Origin: Spirochaetia bacterium
Lineage (GTDB): Bacteria; Spirochaetota; Spirochaetia; DSM-2461
Length of the DNA: 64,000 nt
NCBI GenBank assembly: GCA_963668315.1
Contig: OY764216.1
Span: forward strand, 320,001 to 384,000
Direction: 5' to 3'
Shown: positions 3,003-27,102 of the stretch, in pieces
How the letters are laid out: every line of letters begins with the position of its first letter
Position numbering within the stretch: the first letter of the stretch is position 1
The notes under the pieces: model-generated
Seen by the model: only the letters and a program-made list of their open reading frames with translations
Database searches by the model: none
Told to the model about the DNA's origin: nothing
Position numbers and translations under genes: made by a program

Positions 3003-4676
3003 CTACAGAGAGAAAATGGCCGCCTCCCAGGGACGCAGCCGCCGGCAGCCCGGTTTCTCCCAGCCGGGATAGTTCCCCAGAAGGCGCGTTCCCGCAGCGG
3101 CTTTGAGCTTTCGGGGCAGCCGGAAATATTTTCTCCTCGATGTAAAATTCAAGACAACAAGGAGAGTTTCTCCCTCCTGGGAGCGGGTATAGGCGACGAC
3201 AGGCTTATCCGGGGAGGTGAGCAATTCATATTCGCCGTAGACCATGGCGGGATGCTTCTTTCTCAGGGAGATCAGTTCCCGGTAGAAGTACCATATGGAA
3301 TTCCCGTCCTTCCGGGCCCTTTCCACATTGATCTCTGCATAATTGGGGTTCACCCTGATCCAGGGAGTTCCCGTGGTAAAACCCGCATGGGCGGAATCGT
3401 CCCACTGCATGGGAGTCCGGGCATTCTCCCGTGTCCATTTCCGCCAGCGGGACAGAAAGCTCTCTTCCGACTCCCCCTGGGCGGCACATTTCGCCCAGTC
3501 ATTCCTGAGGGCGACATCATTGATATCATCCATCCGCTCGAAGGGAACATTCGTCATTCCGATCTCCTCCCCCTGGTAGATATAGGGGGAACCGGGCATG
3601 GTATGAAGATAGGCACCCAGCAGCTTGGCCGATTCGATCCGGTACTCGGCGTCATCTCCCCAGACGGAAACCTGCCGGGGAAGATCGTGATTATTGAAGA
3701 ACTGACTGTTCCAGCCCCTGCCCCAGGTCGCATCATACCATCTCTGCTGAATACGGTTGAGCTGCCCGATTCTCTTCTTTGAGGGGAATTGCCGGGGCAG
3801 GCCGCAAATCTCAAAGTGAAAGATCATATTGAGTTCCTCCCTTTCGGGAGCGACGTAATCGCAGGCCATGGCCGGGGTGGTCATATTCATCTCGGCCACA
3901 GTCATCACATCGTATCGGGATAGAGCCTTTTGATACATCTCGTGGAAAATACCGTGCAGACCGGGGTTATGGGAGTATAGCTCCTCGTCCAGCACATAGC
4001 CGTCCTGATGGGTCGGAGCCTTTTTCGAATCGGGGAAGCCCTCGGGTTTCTGCATCAGATGCACCGCGTCCATGCGGAATCCATCGATTCCCTTGTCGAG
4101 CCACCACGTCATCATATTCAGGATTTCGCTTCTCAGCCCGGGGCAGTCCCAGTTCAGATCGGGCTGCTTCCGGCTGAAGAAATGCAGGTAATACTCGCCT
4201 GTGGCCTCATCATACTCCCAGGCGGAACCGTGGAAGAGAGATTCCCAGTTATTGGGGGGCCGTCTCTTACCATCTTCCATCCGGCCCGGCCGCCATACAT
4301 AATAGTCCCGGAAGGGGTTATCCAGGCTCTTCCGGGATTCAACGAACCAGGGATGCTCATCGGATGAGTGGTTTACTACCAGGTCCATAATCAGCTTGAT
4401 ACCCCGGCGATGGCACTGTTCAAGGAGTGTTTCCCAGTCCTCCATCGTGCCGAACTCATCCATTATATCCCGGTAATCGGAGATATCGTAGCCATTATCG
4501 TCGTTGGGCGATTTGTAGACCGGATTCAGCCAGATCACATCAATGCCCAGATCTTTAAGATAATCAAGCCGGGAAATCACACCGGGAATATCACCGATCC
4601 CGTCTCCGTCGGAATCCATAAAACTCCGTACATAAACCTGATATATAACCGCTTCTTTCCACCATGCTTTTTCCAA
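3003..4676 (-). CDS. GH13 alpha-glucosidase (oligo-1,6-glucosidase-like subfamily)
   Basis: WWKEAVIYQVY, DNGYDISDY, DLVVNH, QPDLN, catalytic GFRMDAV / TVAE / NNHD, YQGEEIGM, RTPMQW. TTG start with AGGAG SD. Confidence 0.95.
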   Translation of the reverse strand: MEKAWWKEAVIYQVYVRSFMDSDGDGIGDIPGVISRLDYLKDLGIDVIWLNPVYKSPNDDNGYDISDYRDIMDEFGTMEDWETLLEQCHRRGIKLIMDLVVNHSSDEHPWFVESRKSLDNPFRDYYVWRPGRMEDGKRRPPNNWESLFHGSAWEYDEATGEYYLHFFSRKQPDLNWDCPGLRSEILNMMTWWLDKGIDGFRMDAVHLMQKPEGFPDSKKAPTHQDGYVLDEELYSHNPGLHGIFHEMYQKALSRYDVMTVAEMNMTTPAMACDYVAPEREELNMIFHFEICGLPRQFPSKKRIGQLNRIQQRWYDATWGRGWNSQFFNNHDLPRQVSVWGDDAEYRIESAKLLGAYLHTMPGSPYIYQGEEIGMTNVPFERMDDINDVALRNDWAKCAAQGESEESFLSRWRKWTRENARTPMQWDDSAHAGFTTGTPWIRVNPNYAEINVERARKDGNSIWYFYRELISLRKKHPAMVYGEYELLTSPDKPVVAYTRSQEGETLLVVLNFTSRRKYFRLPRKLKAAAGTRLLGNYPGWEKPGCRRLRPWEAAIFSL

Positions 4677-4723
4677 GGAAGACTCCTCTCTCTTATGAAA
4701 TGCCGAATTATGGCAATACCTTC

Positions 4724-4762
4724 AGTATAAAAGAGGATTTCAGATTACGCAATCGTTTGCAT
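4724..4762 (-). promoter_or_regulatory. Glucosidase promoter with overlapping LacI-family operator
   Basis: TTGCGT (4747-4752), 17 bp, TATACT (4724-4729). Near-palindrome ATGCAAACGATTGCGT (4747-4762) with central CG, typical of LacI/GalR operators. Confidence 0.7.
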
Positions 4763-4788
4763 AAGAAATGGAAAGAGTACCGGGAAGA

Positions 4789-4819
4789 TAAAGAAAAGGG
4801 CCTGCAACGCAGGCCCTTT
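4789..4819 (-). terminator. Intrinsic terminator
   Basis: AAAGGGCCTGC-AAC-GCAGGCCCTTT (4795-4819) preceded by an A-rich run, which is a U-tract on the minus strand. Confidence 0.85.
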
Positions 4820-4904
4820 AAGGAGGGAGTTCTTATGAAAAAAAAGTTCACATTCTAGTTAAATGTTGTTCTTTTCCGGGACATTGTCCCTGTGCTGTTG
4901 AGAT
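4790..4904 (-). ncRNA. Candidate trans-acting small RNA with anti-SD/anti-AUG tract
   Basis: Minus-strand -10-like TAGATT/TATATT at 4906-4916, 5' hairpin GGGAC-AAT-GTCCC, unpaired UUUUUUUUCAUAAGAACUCCCUCCUU, then a terminator with a U-tract. No ORF on this strand. Ends are approximate. Confidence 0.6.
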
Positions 4905-4983
4905 AAATATAATCTATGAGCCTTTCCCCAACATTACCGTACCGTTACATTGATGTAATATTCTTTTGATAATGTCACAAAGG

Positions 4984-6185
4984 TTTGACATAATTTTCTG
5001 AAATATCGGGTTTTCCCCTCAAAAAATCCTCCCTTCTATTAGTGACTTGAAAGAAGGAGGTTCACATTGTCCAATCAGATTTACTGCCCTAATCCGAAGT
5101 GCGTTAATCATCCTCATACATCTGAAAGCAATTCCTGGATACGTAAGAAGGGCTTTGTAAAAACAAAGAGGGATGGCATGGTTCAACGTTATCAATGCAA
5201 GGACTGTTTATCCACATTCTCTCTATCTTATTTCACAATAGACCATTATGTTCAAAAGAAGCTTTCTTATCCCACCCTTCTGAACCATCTTGTCAGCGGT
5301 TCAGGCATCAGAGATATGGCGCGGGCCATGCATTCCTCACCCAGTATCATCACGAACCGCATTCAACGTCTGTCGAAGAGAATAACTTCTGTATGTCCTA
5401 AGGAAATCCATGATTTGGAGCTCAGTGAATCGGTGGCCGCCGACGGGTTGGAAAACTTCATTCTCTCCCAGTATTTCCCGACCAATGTAAATATCCTGGC
5501 CGGTCAACGATCCCAATTTATCTACACCTTCAATGCCTACCACTTTAAACGTAAGGGAGCCTGCACAGAAGAACAGAAAAAAAGAAAATCAGAGCTCTAT
5601 GAATCAGCCTTGTTTGAGAAGGGAGCTGCCTCCCGGAGTTTCAGGGAGATACTGCGCTTTCTTTCGGAAAAATCAGAAAAATCTTCCTTGCCCTCAGTTA
5701 TTCTTGATACGGATGAACACCCCATCTATCGCCATCAGTTTGAACAATACGAATTTCTTTCACACAAAATACGCCACAGAAGGACGAACTCCCGAATAGA
5801 ACGGAATTATCAAAACAAATTATTTCCCTGCAACTATATAGACAGACAGATAAGAAAGGATTTAGCCGAATATATACGGGAGACGGTTCAGTTTGGAAGA
5901 AATATGAATAACAGTATGGACAGATTTTCCTGCTACTGCTTCTGGCATAATTTCCTTAAACCTTTTCGAATAAATAAAAGGAACAGAAAATACCTTACAC
6001 ATAGTCACGCTGCGGGTTTTACACCGGAAAAAAACAGGGAGATAATTAACGAGGTTTTCCATGGATGCAGAAAAAGAGAAGAGGATTTTATGGAGTATCT
6101 TACGGATTTTCAGAAAGCTCACTGGAAGAGAACTCTTCTGAATCCGTTAAATAAAAAAGCGGTCTAGGAACGAATTGATGTCAAA
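4984..6185 (+). mobile_element. Putative IS1-like insertion element (ends tentative)
   Basis: Visibly AT-richer than the flanks and contains a single transposase-like ORF. Imperfect inverted ends TTTGACAT-AATT (4984) and AATTGATGTCAAA (to 6185). No clear target duplication. Confidence 0.5.
5067..6167 (+). CDS. IS1-like transposase (zinc ribbon + HTH + DDE-like core)
   Basis: CPNPKC...QRYQCKDC..TF zinc ribbon, GIRDMARAM HTH, ADGLENF, DTDEHPIY, NYIDRQIRK.L....RETVQF (compare IS1 IERxNxxxRxxLxRxxRxTxxF). TTG start with AAGGAGG SD. Confidence 0.75.
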   Translation: MSNQIYCPNPKCVNHPHTSESNSWIRKKGFVKTKRDGMVQRYQCKDCLSTFSLSYFTIDHYVQKKLSYPTLLNHLVSGSGIRDMARAMHSSPSIITNRIQRLSKRITSVCPKEIHDLELSESVAADGLENFILSQYFPTNVNILAGQRSQFIYTFNAYHFKRKGACTEEQKKRKSELYESALFEKGAASRSFREILRFLSEKSEKSSLPSVILDTDEHPIYRHQFEQYEFLSHKIRHRRTNSRIERNYQNKLFPCNYIDRQIRKDLAEYIRETVQFGRNMNNSMDRFSCYCFWHNFLKPFRINKRNRKYLTHSHAAGFTPEKNREIINEVFHGCRKREEDFMEYLTDFQKAHWKRTLLNPLNKKAV

Positions 6186-6328
6186 GAATAAGAACATTAA
6201 GAAAGATGCTCTCCAATTGTTCTTTCCCTTGACCATAAGGCAATTTCAGGTTTACCATTTTTCCATCACCTGCGGATCTCCCGATCTATCCTTGCACGCC
6301 GTATGCGGCATCATACCCGGAGGGGTAC

Positions 6329-8122
6329 ATGAAACAAACGACAGAAAAAAACGCCCCCGTTATTATAAGACTCTTCAGAATGATTGGGCCCAGCCGTTTT
6401 ATCTTCCTGGGCGCCATGGCGGCCCTGGCATTCTCCATTGCCTTCGAAGCGAGCGGAACCCTTATCATCCGCCATGTGGTGGATAATGTGCTGGGTTCCG
6501 GCGGTGGAGTGAAAAGCATTGCCTTCTGGGCCGCGGTCTATATGGGCACGGCCCTGATGAGGGGTATTCTGAATTTCCTCCAGGGACTGGGCAAATCGAA
6601 AACCTCGGAGAAAATCGCCCGGACGATCAGAAACAGGGTGTACGACCATCTGCAGAGGCTCTCTTTCCGCTATCACGACGAGAACAAGACCGGAGAGCTG
6701 ATTCAGCGTTCTACCAGTGACGTGGATACGGTGCGCCGCTTTTATGCCGATCAGATCCCCGGACTCTGCAACACCACGTTTCTCTTTCTCATCAACTTCA
6801 CCCTCCTCCTCACGCTGGAGTGGCGTCTGGCCCTTTTTTCCGTCATAGCCATCCCGGTCATCATACTGCTCTCCTGGCTCTTCTTCGGCAAGATATTCTC
6901 TGCCTATGACAAGTTCCAGGATCACGAAGGGGACATGACGGCCCGAATCCAGGAGAACCTCAACGGAATCCGCGTGGTAAGGGCCTTTGCCCGGCAGGAC
7001 TGGGAAAAGGAGAATTTCAGGAGAATCAACAGCAAACAGCTGGAACTGGGGTATAAGCTGAATTTCTGGGACAGCTTCTACTGGCCCTTCGGCCATGCGG
7101 TCTGCGGTTTCCAGTTCGCCGCCACTCTGTTCGTGGGGGGAATTATGGCCATCAACGGCAGAATCACCGCCGGTACGTTCATCGCCTTTTCCTCCATGAT
7201 AAACGCCCTCATCTGGCCTATGCAGGAACTGGGACGGGCCCTTAAGGAAGTCTCGAAAAGCTATGTTTCCTTTGCGAGAATATCGGAGATTCTCGATGAG
7301 GATCAGGAAGATCTGGTGGAGGCGGAACTGCCCATTGATATGTCTATTAAAGGAAAGGTGGAATTCCGGGACGTCTCTTTTCATTACGTGAAGGGCGTGC
7401 CCGTACTGGACAACATCAGCTTCACCTGCGAACCGGGCATGAAGATCGCCCTTCTGGGGGCAACCGGCTCGGGAAAGACATCCCTGGTCAATCTGCTGCC
7501 CCGCTTCTATGAATACACGGGGGGTGAGATTCTGCTGGACGACAGTCCCCTGACCCACTACAGCCGCCACACCCTGAGAAAGAATATCGGAATCGTGGAG
7601 CAGGAGCCCTTCCTCTTCTCCATGACCGTCAGGGAGAACATCACCTACAGCCTGGAGCGGGACGTCACCCAGGAAGAGGTGGAGCAGGTGGCCAGAGCCG
7701 CGGCGATTCACGACTCCATCATGTCCTTTCCCAAGGGGTATGATACCATGGTGGGGGAAAAGGGTGTCAGCCTGTCGGGAGGGCAGAAACAGCGCCTTAC
7801 CATCGCGCGGACACTGCTCAAGAACCCCCGGATACTTATTCTGGACGATTCAACTTCGGCGGTGGACGCCGATACGGAAGACAAGATAAAGAGCGCCCTG
7901 GAATCGCTGATGGAAAAACGGACCACCTTCATCATCGCCCACCGCATACAGACGCTTCAGAGGGCGGATATGATCTTCGTCCTCAAGGAGGGGCGGATTG
8001 TACAGAGCGGCTCCCACAGAGAGCTGATTGGAAAAGAGGGCTTCTATAAGGATGTCTTCGATCTGCAGACCCGCATGGAGCAGGAACTGCAGGATGAACT
8101 AACCGCCGCCGGAGCGGTATAG
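6329..8122 (+). CDS. Heterodimeric ABC exporter subunit A (TM287/EfrA-like)
   Basis: TM domain, GATGSGKT, LSGGQ, degenerate Walker B ILDDST. Confidence 0.93.
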   Translation: MKQTTEKNAPVIIRLFRMIGPSRFIFLGAMAALAFSIAFEASGTLIIRHVVDNVLGSGGGVKSIAFWAAVYMGTALMRGILNFLQGLGKSKTSEKIARTIRNRVYDHLQRLSFRYHDENKTGELIQRSTSDVDTVRRFYADQIPGLCNTTFLFLINFTLLLTLEWRLALFSVIAIPVIILLSWLFFGKIFSAYDKFQDHEGDMTARIQENLNGIRVVRAFARQDWEKENFRRINSKQLELGYKLNFWDSFYWPFGHAVCGFQFAATLFVGGIMAINGRITAGTFIAFSSMINALIWPMQELGRALKEVSKSYVSFARISEILDEDQEDLVEAELPIDMSIKGKVEFRDVSFHYVKGVPVLDNISFTCEPGMKIALLGATGSGKTSLVNLLPRFYEYTGGEILLDDSPLTHYSRHTLRKNIGIVEQEPFLFSMTVRENITYSLERDVTQEEVEQVARAAAIHDSIMSFPKGYDTMVGEKGVSLSGGQKQRLTIARTLLKNPRILILDDSTSAVDADTEDKIKSALESLMEKRTTFIIAHRIQTLQRADMIFVLKEGRIVQSGSHRELIGKEGFYKDVFDLQTRMEQELQDELTAAGAV

Positions 8123-26106: not shown

Positions 26107-27102
26107 TTAGATCTGGATACGGGCGTTAAGCGCCGCCCCCAGACTGCCGCTGGACACATTGTACATGGCTGTAAGATCAAGCTTCAACACAACGATATTG
26201 AAACTGCATCCGCCCCAGACTCTCAGAGAGCCGCCGTTGGCTTCGGAAATGATGCTGAATCCGGAATTGGAAATATCCATATCCAGGGCATCCTCTATGG
26301 CTGAAATCTGAGAATCAGTCAAAGGAGTCGTTCCATCGGAGGTGACACTGGCATCGATACCGCCGCCGGCGGAAGAGAAACCGTAGGAGTAGCCCACACC
26401 CACGCTGGGAGTGAGGATCAGGAAGCTCTTGCTGGCCTGGGCCTTCACATCGATAATGTTGGCGCTCCAGTTATAGTACATATCTCCTTCACTCAAGGTA
26501 ATATCAGTTACTCCATTATAGTTGGCTCCTCCAAAATCAATAGTCCTGCTCGGAGTAATCCCATCCATATAGATACCGCCCGTCAGGTAGTTATACCCCA
26601 CACCAACAGAAACGGAAGGAAGAATCAGACCGCCCTTCACGACACCCCAGCGGACATCTCCCCCGAGCATCATATAGTCGATTCCCACGCCGCCGGTCAT
26701 ATCTTCCAGCATGCCGGGACTAAGAAATCCGCCTTTCACTCCCACGTCGATGGGCAGAATGGGAATTCCCACCCGGGCATCGACGGTATAGGCGGGAAGG
26801 GGTACCCCCAGGCTTCCCGTCACAAAAGAGGGCAGATCCACCCCGAGCTGTGTTGCCACCGCTTCGAAAGAGTCGGAAGGAAGGGAGACGAAACCCGTCG
26901 TCAGCCCGACGCCGAAATGGGGAAAACCTCCCAGATAGGCATCGCTCCAATTCAATCCCAGCGTGCTGGCGTAGGGAAGAGCCCCTGCCATATCGTCGGA
27001 AAAATCCTTGAAATCAGATTCCAGACTGCTGTACGTAATTTGAGCTGTAGCAAAACCTGCAGCCATCATCATAATCATTAATGTTAGTAGTAATTTTTTC
27101 AT
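26107..27102 (-). CDS. Putative outer-membrane beta-barrel protein
   Basis: Signal peptide MKKLLL...ATA. Gly/aromatic-rich alternating strands ending in ALNARIQI. Confidence 0.65.
   Translation of the reverse strand: MKKLLLTLMIMMMAAGFATAQITYSSLESDFKDFSDDMAGALPYASTLGLNWSDAYLGGFPHFGVGLTTGFVSLPSDSFEAVATQLGVDLPSFVTGSLGVPLPAYTVDARVGIPILPIDVGVKGGFLSPGMLEDMTGGVGIDYMMLGGDVRWGVVKGGLILPSVSVGVGYNYLTGGIYMDGITPSRTIDFGGANYNGVTDITLSEGDMYYNWSANIIDVKAQASKSFLILTPSVGVGYSYGFSSAGGGIDASVTSDGTTPLTDSQISAIEDALDMDISNSGFSIISEANGGSLRVWGGCSFNIVVLKLDLTAMYNVSSGSLGAALNARIQI

Follow-up and report, generated by a model that had tools for sequence, protein, structure and literature searches.

The window analysed here is a 64,000-nucleotide stretch of contig OY764216.1 from a Spirochaetia bacterium, and the element under study sits in a 390-nt gap within it, between a minus-strand GH13 alpha-glucosidase gene (3003..4676; Pfam Alpha-amylase, 513.7 bits), the neighbour downstream of the element's terminator, and a plus-strand insertion sequence (~4964..6201). 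The insertion sequence begins 15 bp upstream of the first of the promoter repeats described below; it bounds the conserved block and lies outside the RNA gene. Its transposase-like open reading frame (ORF; 5067-6167, 366 aa) found no match in Pfam, and the genome carries ten other copies, four at 97-99% and six at 71-73%. The next gene after the insertion sequence encodes an ABC exporter (6329-8122). A contig of a relative (run X5) spans 4200-4967, differing there at 32 letters, continues past 4967 with 13 other letters and then matches window positions 6202-6218; because it rejoins the window there, the relative must be without the insertion sequence at this site. Of the differences listed for this contig, 4677-4789 holds eight and 4794-4875 none, counts that are indicative only, as five further ones exist. 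In the source genome the promoter module is intact despite the adjoining insertion sequence. Inspection by eye of the stretch between the terminator and the glucosidase start also revealed a LacI-type operator-like palindrome (TTACGCAATCGTTTGCATAA, 4745-4764) and a minus-strand TTGCGT-17-TATACT promoter (~4700-4745); palindromes similar to TTACGCAATCGTTTGCATAA are present in L025 and L037 as well.

Re-reading of the sequence gave the same letters for 4790-4899 as the first-pass annotation. On the plus strand these comprise, in order, an A-run (4790-4797), a hairpin GGGCCTGC/GCAGGCCC (4798-4816) and AAGGAGGGAGTTCTT-ATG-AAAAAAAAG with the ATG at 4835-4837, so that the strand reads, as had been described, as a hairpin, a Shine-Dalgarno (SD) sequence, an ATG and an MKKK start leading to only seven codons, the ORF ending at 4858. 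On the minus strand the order is a -10 box TATATT (4906..4911), about 7 nt, AACAGCAC, the hairpin GGGAC-AAU-GUCCC (4878..4890), a variable stretch, the tract GAACUUUUUUUUCAUAAGAACUCCCUCCUU, an 11-pair hairpin and UUUUCUUU. We predict here a minus-strand small-RNA gene of ~110 nt (4790..4899), its start being placed 7 nt past the -10 box and its end at the last U of the terminator tail, which scores 96.8 bits with our covariance model R1. The intrinsic terminator (4790..4819, minus) has a stem of 4798-4805 with 4809-4816, extended by A-U pairs, and a U-run UUUUCUUU corresponding to plus-strand 4790-4797; a terminator scan found a proper T-tail for this hairpin on the minus strand only (4819->4795, 11 pairs). 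The seed tract GAACUUUUUUUUCAUAAGAACUCCCUCCUU (4820..4849, minus) is the complement of the SD sequence (GGAGG, 4822-4826), the spacer, the AUG (4835-4837) and AAA codons. Upstream of the -10 box lie three direct repeats with an 11-bp period (4922..4949, minus): TGTAAC (4949-4944), GGTAAT (4938-4933) and GGAAAG (4927-4922). The minus-strand transcription proposed in the first-pass annotation agrees with the terminator T-tail, with the keeping of the -10 box on that strand and with the orientation of the promoter module, which is the same as before htrA genes.

In the predicted fold CAUAAGAACUCCCUCCUU is unpaired, with the 5′ hairpin on one side and the terminator on the other (z -4.06), in line with the earlier proposal of an RNA made of a 5′ hairpin, an unpaired tract and a terminator. 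Among the six copies that we call group A, the seed tract is unpaired in all six centroid folds, the minimum-energy fold of L037 pairing part of it; the 5′ hairpin is predicted in five of them, and in L037 another hairpin occupies its place. The -10 box is TATATT in five of these copies and TATACT in one. The first 8-9 nt of the RNA (4891-4899) are conserved in group A and in the sibling group B described below (AACAGCAC, AAGAGCAAC, AUAAGCAAC), and this 5′ end might serve as a second seed or a processing signal, or might reflect the initially transcribed region.

Using window positions 4677-4963 as BLASTN query against 41 genomes, we found matches of 71-84% to the block 4789-4963 in each of the three congeneric genomes and none at E < 1e-4 outside the genus; these matches start exactly at the hairpin (4789) and end at the insertion sequence junction. 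The six group-A copies are distributed over the four genomes of the genus (one in the source genome, one in G001, two each in G002 and G003), the set including two copies fetched beyond the BLASTN matches. R1 likewise returned six matches in 4/4 genus genomes, at 80.5-99.6 bits, the next best in the 38 genomes of the family standing at 45.6 bits; it found nothing comparable in the other 34 family genomes, the order-level search set being the same 38, and a sample of 150 further genomes from the class yielded no match at E ≤ 1e-5. A contig scan with a pattern of at least eight T returned one contig, that of a G003 copy; as copies with seven T fall outside the pattern, this result carries little information on distribution. 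BLASTN for paralogues within the source genome gave short pieces only; the search for paralogs and homologs that had been suggested was answered through the covariance model and a promoter regular expression, with the six copies in the genus and, in the source genome, a set of sibling sRNA-like genes.

In the six-copy alignment a core of 28 nt is near-invariant, and the hairpins vary in sequence with their pairing kept. Over the whole structure the share of paired cells is 92.6%, and double changes occur at 11 of 16 pairs, a score reached by none of 500 shuffles, these values being based on few, related sequences from a group confined to four genomes. The terminator carries the signal: nine of its 11 stem pairs have changed on both sides, with 98% of cells paired across nine family sequences. 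Covariation of the 5′ hairpin is weak (double changes in 2/5 pairs, 78% of cells paired). On sequence grounds, the element has the features of a stand-alone small-RNA gene, namely a putative promoter of its own, an intrinsic terminator, an intergenic position, conservation and an apparently non-coding nature.

The promoter follows the layout TGTAAT-N5-GGTAAT-N5-KGMAAK, 10 nt, TATATT, which is the same in 12/12 aligned promoters, and all six group-A copies as well as the group-B copies have this module upstream of the -10 box. A regular expression of two repeats plus the -10 box, derived without the genes B3, B4, E and htrA, gave eight matches in the 5.6-Mb source genome: the element, the sRNA-like genes B1-B4 and E, one HtrA/DegP protease gene and one likely chance site. 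The genome thus holds the element and five other sRNA-like genes with the module, four of the five with the same kind of anti-start core. For the one module-bearing protein gene we had guessed an HtrA-type protease beforehand from known envelope-stress regulons, and Pfam agreed, placing Trypsin_2 and two PDZ domains in a product whose N-terminus is signal-peptide-like by eye. This htrA paralogue (L063:4860-6287, plus) carries a module of 38-39 bits. A profile scan, which is partly circular because seven training sites came from the source genome, ranked seven own-genome sites at 36.6-41.2 bits and next a site of 22.4 bits, 178 nt upstream of a second HtrA/DegP paralogue (L121:5872-7428, plus). 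A PspA gene (L063:2580-3263) lies two genes from the first htrA, and a PAS-HisKA_2 kinase gene is divergent from it.

Across 38 genomes a strict version of the pattern had 22 matches, and its reversed control none. Fifteen of the matches precede htrA homologues, six precede sRNA-like genes (in genus g1 only) and one precedes a MoxR-like gene. By locus, the module stands just upstream of htrA at 15 of 19 loci in g1, g2 and g4 and at none of ten in g3 and g5. The MoxR-like gene with the strict promoter pattern encodes an AAA ATPase (L137:1501-1543 (+), genome G011, genus g4).

Direct repeats spaced by about one helical turn beside a -10 box, and common to several promoters, are the pattern that would mark a regulon of an OmpR/PhoB-type response regulator; the module shows this pattern, and the triple repeat at 4922..4949 is likely a response-regulator site. 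We found no recognisable -35 hexamer in the promoter, as would be expected if this putative promoter were activator-dependent. An ECF sigma factor in place of a response regulator is the less probable alternative, as three evenly spaced repeats fit a response regulator better.

A candidate for this regulator came from gene order. In g2 and g4 an OmpR-family regulator, a HisKA kinase, the module and htrA follow one another, and among the 20 OmpR-type regulators of the source genome the orthologue is G000:C1:4370903-4371580 (63% identical, the next paralogue 41%), which is adjoined by an intact kinase gene. The orthologue is present in the source genome and in two of three others of g1, in 14/14 genomes of g2, in 4/4 of g4 and in the single genome of g6, and is absent from 4/4 of g3 and 11/11 of g5, a spread that agrees by genus with that of the module. 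G003, 90% complete, gave no regulator match, and in the g6 genome, 74% complete, the regulator occurs with no strict motif match. With about two independent contrasts behind it, this co-occurrence is no more than suggestive; together with the synteny, it hints at the orthologous two-component system as the one that would drive the module promoters. The PAS-HisKA_2 kinase beside the first htrA was rejected for this role, as it lacks a DNA-binding partner at that place and is unlinked to htrA in other genera.

The sibling sRNA-like genes fall into several groups. Group B consists of four genes of the source genome (L064:5624-5742 (+), L065:5622-5741 (+), L066 ~6470-6635 (-) and L067:5196-5360 (-)), two of them, B3 and B4, having first been found through the promoter regular expression; they share the triple-repeat promoter of the element and have the core CUUUUUUCAUAAAACUCUCUCC, or CUUUUUCAUAAGAUUCUCUCC in B4. 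BLASTN did not find group B in the other genomes of the genus, and two weak matches in congeners were rejected, one because it is the reverse of a real gene start and the other because it is a terminator. Group C (L068:4799-4884 (+), and also L055, L058 and L060) combines UUUUUUUCAUAAAAUAAACUUCCU with a terminator behind a sigma-70-like promoter without the repeat module, and is present in 4/4 genus genomes. Group D is a minus-strand gene with UUUUUUUCAUAAGACUCCUCCUU and a terminator (L069 ~6050-6160); short BLASTN matches point to possible orthologues in G002:C233 and G003:C100. Gene E (L070 ~5330-5506, minus) has the triple-repeat promoter, two CUCUCC tracts, a terminator and no CAU, and lies just downstream of genes for a 7TM histidine kinase and a LuxR-type response regulator.

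Below the six group-A matches, R1 picked up a mixture of real gene starts and sRNA-like genes with tiny antisense ORFs. Four of the 18 weaker matches inspected were rejected as real gene starts on the other strand (ORFs of 462, 121, 338 and 341 aa), and a low model score is therefore no evidence of membership. At the htrA 3′ ends of g2 and g4, a U-run-CAU-UCUCUCC stands just before the terminator in five of 15 readable cases (L079, L083, L086, L088 and L098, within the first ~70 nt past the htrA stop codon) and in partial form in five more, by eye; the same inspection found it in 0/4 htrA 3′ ends of the source genus and in 0/4 of g3 and g5. The tract in the htrA 3′ untranslated region (3′ UTR) of G017 scores 45.6 bits with R1, and such tracts may be 3′ UTR-derived counterparts of the stand-alone RNAs. 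An UUUUUUUUCAUACAAAACUUCCUUCC tract with a terminator directly after the stop of a permease-like gene (G000:C1 ~482300-482380 (-)) may be due to chance or represent a further 3′ UTR element of the anti-start kind.

How closely the seed mirrors a translation start was measured against a profile of start sites, derived with crude gene calls from 3788 real ATG starts in the genome. The reverse complement of the seed falls at the 98.6th percentile of these starts, which bears out the earlier description of the element as the mirror image of a generic translation start, and the reverse complements of the seven anti-start cores fall at the 95.0-99.3rd percentile, so that this description is quantitatively apt. 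At a threshold of ≤ -20 kcal/mol the seed has predicted pairing with 308 of the 4751 start regions; ten shuffled seeds gave 31-115. Signal-peptide-like products, as called by a crude, home-made rule on gene calls of the same kind, made up 37 of the top 100 predicted targets vs 854 of 4751 (18%) overall (p 4e-6). This bias arises largely because the U-run (and the CAU) pairs with lysine-codon starts, and among genes starting ATGAAAAA 116 of 180 were signal-peptide-like. The target numbers show consistency and not proof, as any RNA bearing CCUCC would be predicted to pair with start regions.

Broad targeting of signal-peptide-type starts, as put forward in the first-pass annotation, is thus matched in part, the predicted targets leaning that way, and the example it had quoted is ordinary: the putative outer-membrane-protein start at 27102 (gene 26107..27102, minus) reached -15.9 kcal/mol, an unremarkable rank of 1170 among 4751. 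The genome holds no target of near-full complementarity, the best having 15 contiguous nt. Nor did we find an Hfq match above the Pfam cut-off in the genome, only a sub-threshold match of 18.6 bits inside a 700-aa frame; with no canonical Hfq encoded, pairing would therefore be Hfq-independent.

The element was also set against known systems. Rfam cmscan, a check already recommended for this locus, brought no family to its gathering score. The best match was the alphaproteobacterial family mmgR/suhB RF00519 (26.9 bits, E 0.0023, vs a gathering score of 41); it and the predicted RNA have in common a small size and, ahead of the terminator, a C/U-rich tract of anti-SD type, and no common promoter or context was seen. 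The streptococcal csRNA family RF02379 reached 22.5 bits (E 1.8) vs 57. MicA, RybB and MicL are sigma-E envelope-stress sRNAs of E. coli, and the arrangement proposed here resembles theirs in having a protease or chaperone arm beside an RNA arm that would lower envelope-protein synthesis. The E. coli envelope-stress sRNAs, however, need Hfq and use specific seeds, whereas here we see a generic SD/AUG mirror, a stand-alone gene and a genome in which Hfq was not found. E. coli CpxQ is described as being cut from the cpxP 3′ UTR (PMC4817254), to which the anti-start tract in the htrA 3′ UTR of sister genera bears a likeness; the element itself does not fit such an origin, having its own putative promoter and no gene upstream on its strand.

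The closest likeness is to the csRNAs. As Marx et al. (2010) describe them, these occur several to a genome and have an unpaired anti-SD/anti-AUG tract between two stem-loops; their genes are driven by a two-component regulator, with a CiaR box NTTAAG-N5-TTTAAG 10 nt upstream of the -10 box, and one of them is truncated by an insertion sequence (PMC3091779). The htrA gene is described as belonging to the streptococcal CiaRH regulon. The system here resembles CiaRH and the csRNAs in its sibling sRNAs, the open anti-start tract, the N5-spaced hexamer repeats of which the last lies 10 nt from the -10 box, and htrA in the regulon, and the predicted fold has the csRNA structure of an unpaired SD/AUG-complementary tract with a stem-loop on each side. 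The geometry of the CiaR box is the same, but its hexamers are not found: TGTAAC, GGTAAT and GGAAAG stand in their place. The csRNA promoters have two TTTAAG-type repeats, whereas the module here has three (TGTAAT/GGTAAT/KGMAAK), and the csRNA hosts are Streptococcus, the host here being a double-membrane member of the Spirochaetales. The likeness is best read as one of design and not of descent, which would make the element a convergent analogue of the csRNAs. The full-text literature searched held no description of such an sRNA family, or of an htrA-linked sRNA regulon, in spirochaetes.

Taken together, we consider it probable that the element is a conserved stand-alone gene, likely for a minus-strand sRNA of ~110 nt predicted to block translation starts, and that it belongs with its sibling sRNAs to an envelope-stress two-component regulon. 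Envelope or secretion stress would lead the two-component system (G000:C1:4370903-4371580 and its kinase) to activate the module promoters. HtrA would then rise and misfolded exported proteins would be cleared, and the sibling sRNAs would pair with ribosome-binding sites and start codons in competition with the 30S subunit, so blocking translation. In this way the synthesis of exported proteins, whose mRNAs typically start GGAGG..AUGAAAAAA, would be lowered, the pairing of sRNA and mRNA taking place without Hfq.

Of the other explanations the strongest, although we hold it unlikely, is that the RNA is a real stress-regulon sRNA and not a broad anti-start repressor, acting instead on a few specific targets, as a decoy or sponge, or as a protein binder, the resemblance to a start site being incidental. 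The near-invariance of the entire 28-nt core, with the spacer AAGAA and GAACUU included, goes beyond what generic pairing with SD and AUG would need and speaks for this explanation, as does the conservation of the 5′ end outside the anti-start tract (AACAGCAC in group A, AAGAGCAAC in group B). Specific targeting is, however, at odds with the absence of a near-perfect target from the genome, and a sponge for CsrA with the lack, by eye, of repeated GGA loops. Moreover, all seven sRNA-like genes mirror strong starts with different spacers, which argues that the mimicry itself has been selected.

Much less probable is a function of the plus strand, either through MKKKFTF, as a tiny translated ORF or a leader behind a strong ribosome-binding site, or, as a variant, through a peptide of the type I toxin kind that has an antisense RNA. 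The perfect SD and ATG would suit it, and a plus-strand TTGTCC-18-TATAAT was picked up by the promoter scan (4884-4913), though this lies downstream of the seven-codon ORF. The ORFs at the mirrored ATG are, however, of 7, 15, 15, 33, 50 and >59 aa in differing frames, one copy having TTG in place of the ATG; as neither length nor frame is conserved, the plus strand is therefore judged not to code, and no conserved hydrophobic peptide of the type I toxin-antitoxin kind lies opposite the RNA. In addition, the T-run of the hairpin is on the other strand, the common promoter module faces the opposite way, and the T-A...T of the -10 box is kept in 6/6 copies on the minus strand vs 3/6 on the plus strand, where the final base is T in just those three.

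Slightly less credible still is the idea that the element acts in cis, as leader or attenuator, on the GH13 glucosidase gene downstream. A glucosidase gene on the same strand does follow the element in three of the six copies, but in the other three a convergent ORF comes after the terminator, and the element is therefore not a glucosidase leader. The promoter-like and operator-like sites seen by eye past the terminator would, besides, give the glucosidase gene control of its own, and the genes of groups B-E, for which the promoter is reported as common to B-E and the anti-start core to B, C and D, lie in unrelated contexts. Least probable of all is that a gene for an exported protein decayed and left this 5′ remnant, or that the likeness is due to chance, the element in either case having no function today: the plus strand does resemble the start of a binding-protein gene in another genus (L046, 462 aa, MKKKFSF), but such decay, which the first-pass annotation had named as a possible refutation, misfits the near-invariant 28-nt core, the compensatory changes in the terminator, the conservation of repeats, -10 box and hairpins in six copies and four genomes, and the contrast in the relative's contig, among the differences listed, of eight in 4677-4789 with none in 4794-4875.

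For the probable stress-regulon sRNA that blocks translation starts, a further and more tentative proposal, which we regard as possible but somewhat doubtful, concerns the origin of this RNA arm of ‘initiation-site mimics’: the htrA 3′ UTR tract may have been copied out, with the triple-repeat promoter, into at least six stand-alone sRNAs that throttle exported-protein translation without Hfq. If true, the logic of CiaRH and the csRNAs would have been invented independently in a phylum with two membranes, and the steps leading from 3′ UTR to free gene could still be seen; a 3′ UTR element and free-standing genes of the same regulon could then be compared as a natural series. Almost no work has explored regulatory RNAs in free-living spirochaetes. 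The regulon, if true, would represent a complete stress circuit in a new phylum, comprising sensor kinase, OmpR-type regulator, DNA site, protease and sibling sRNAs, and it would be a second, independent case of start-mirroring sRNAs, bearing on the generality of this design.
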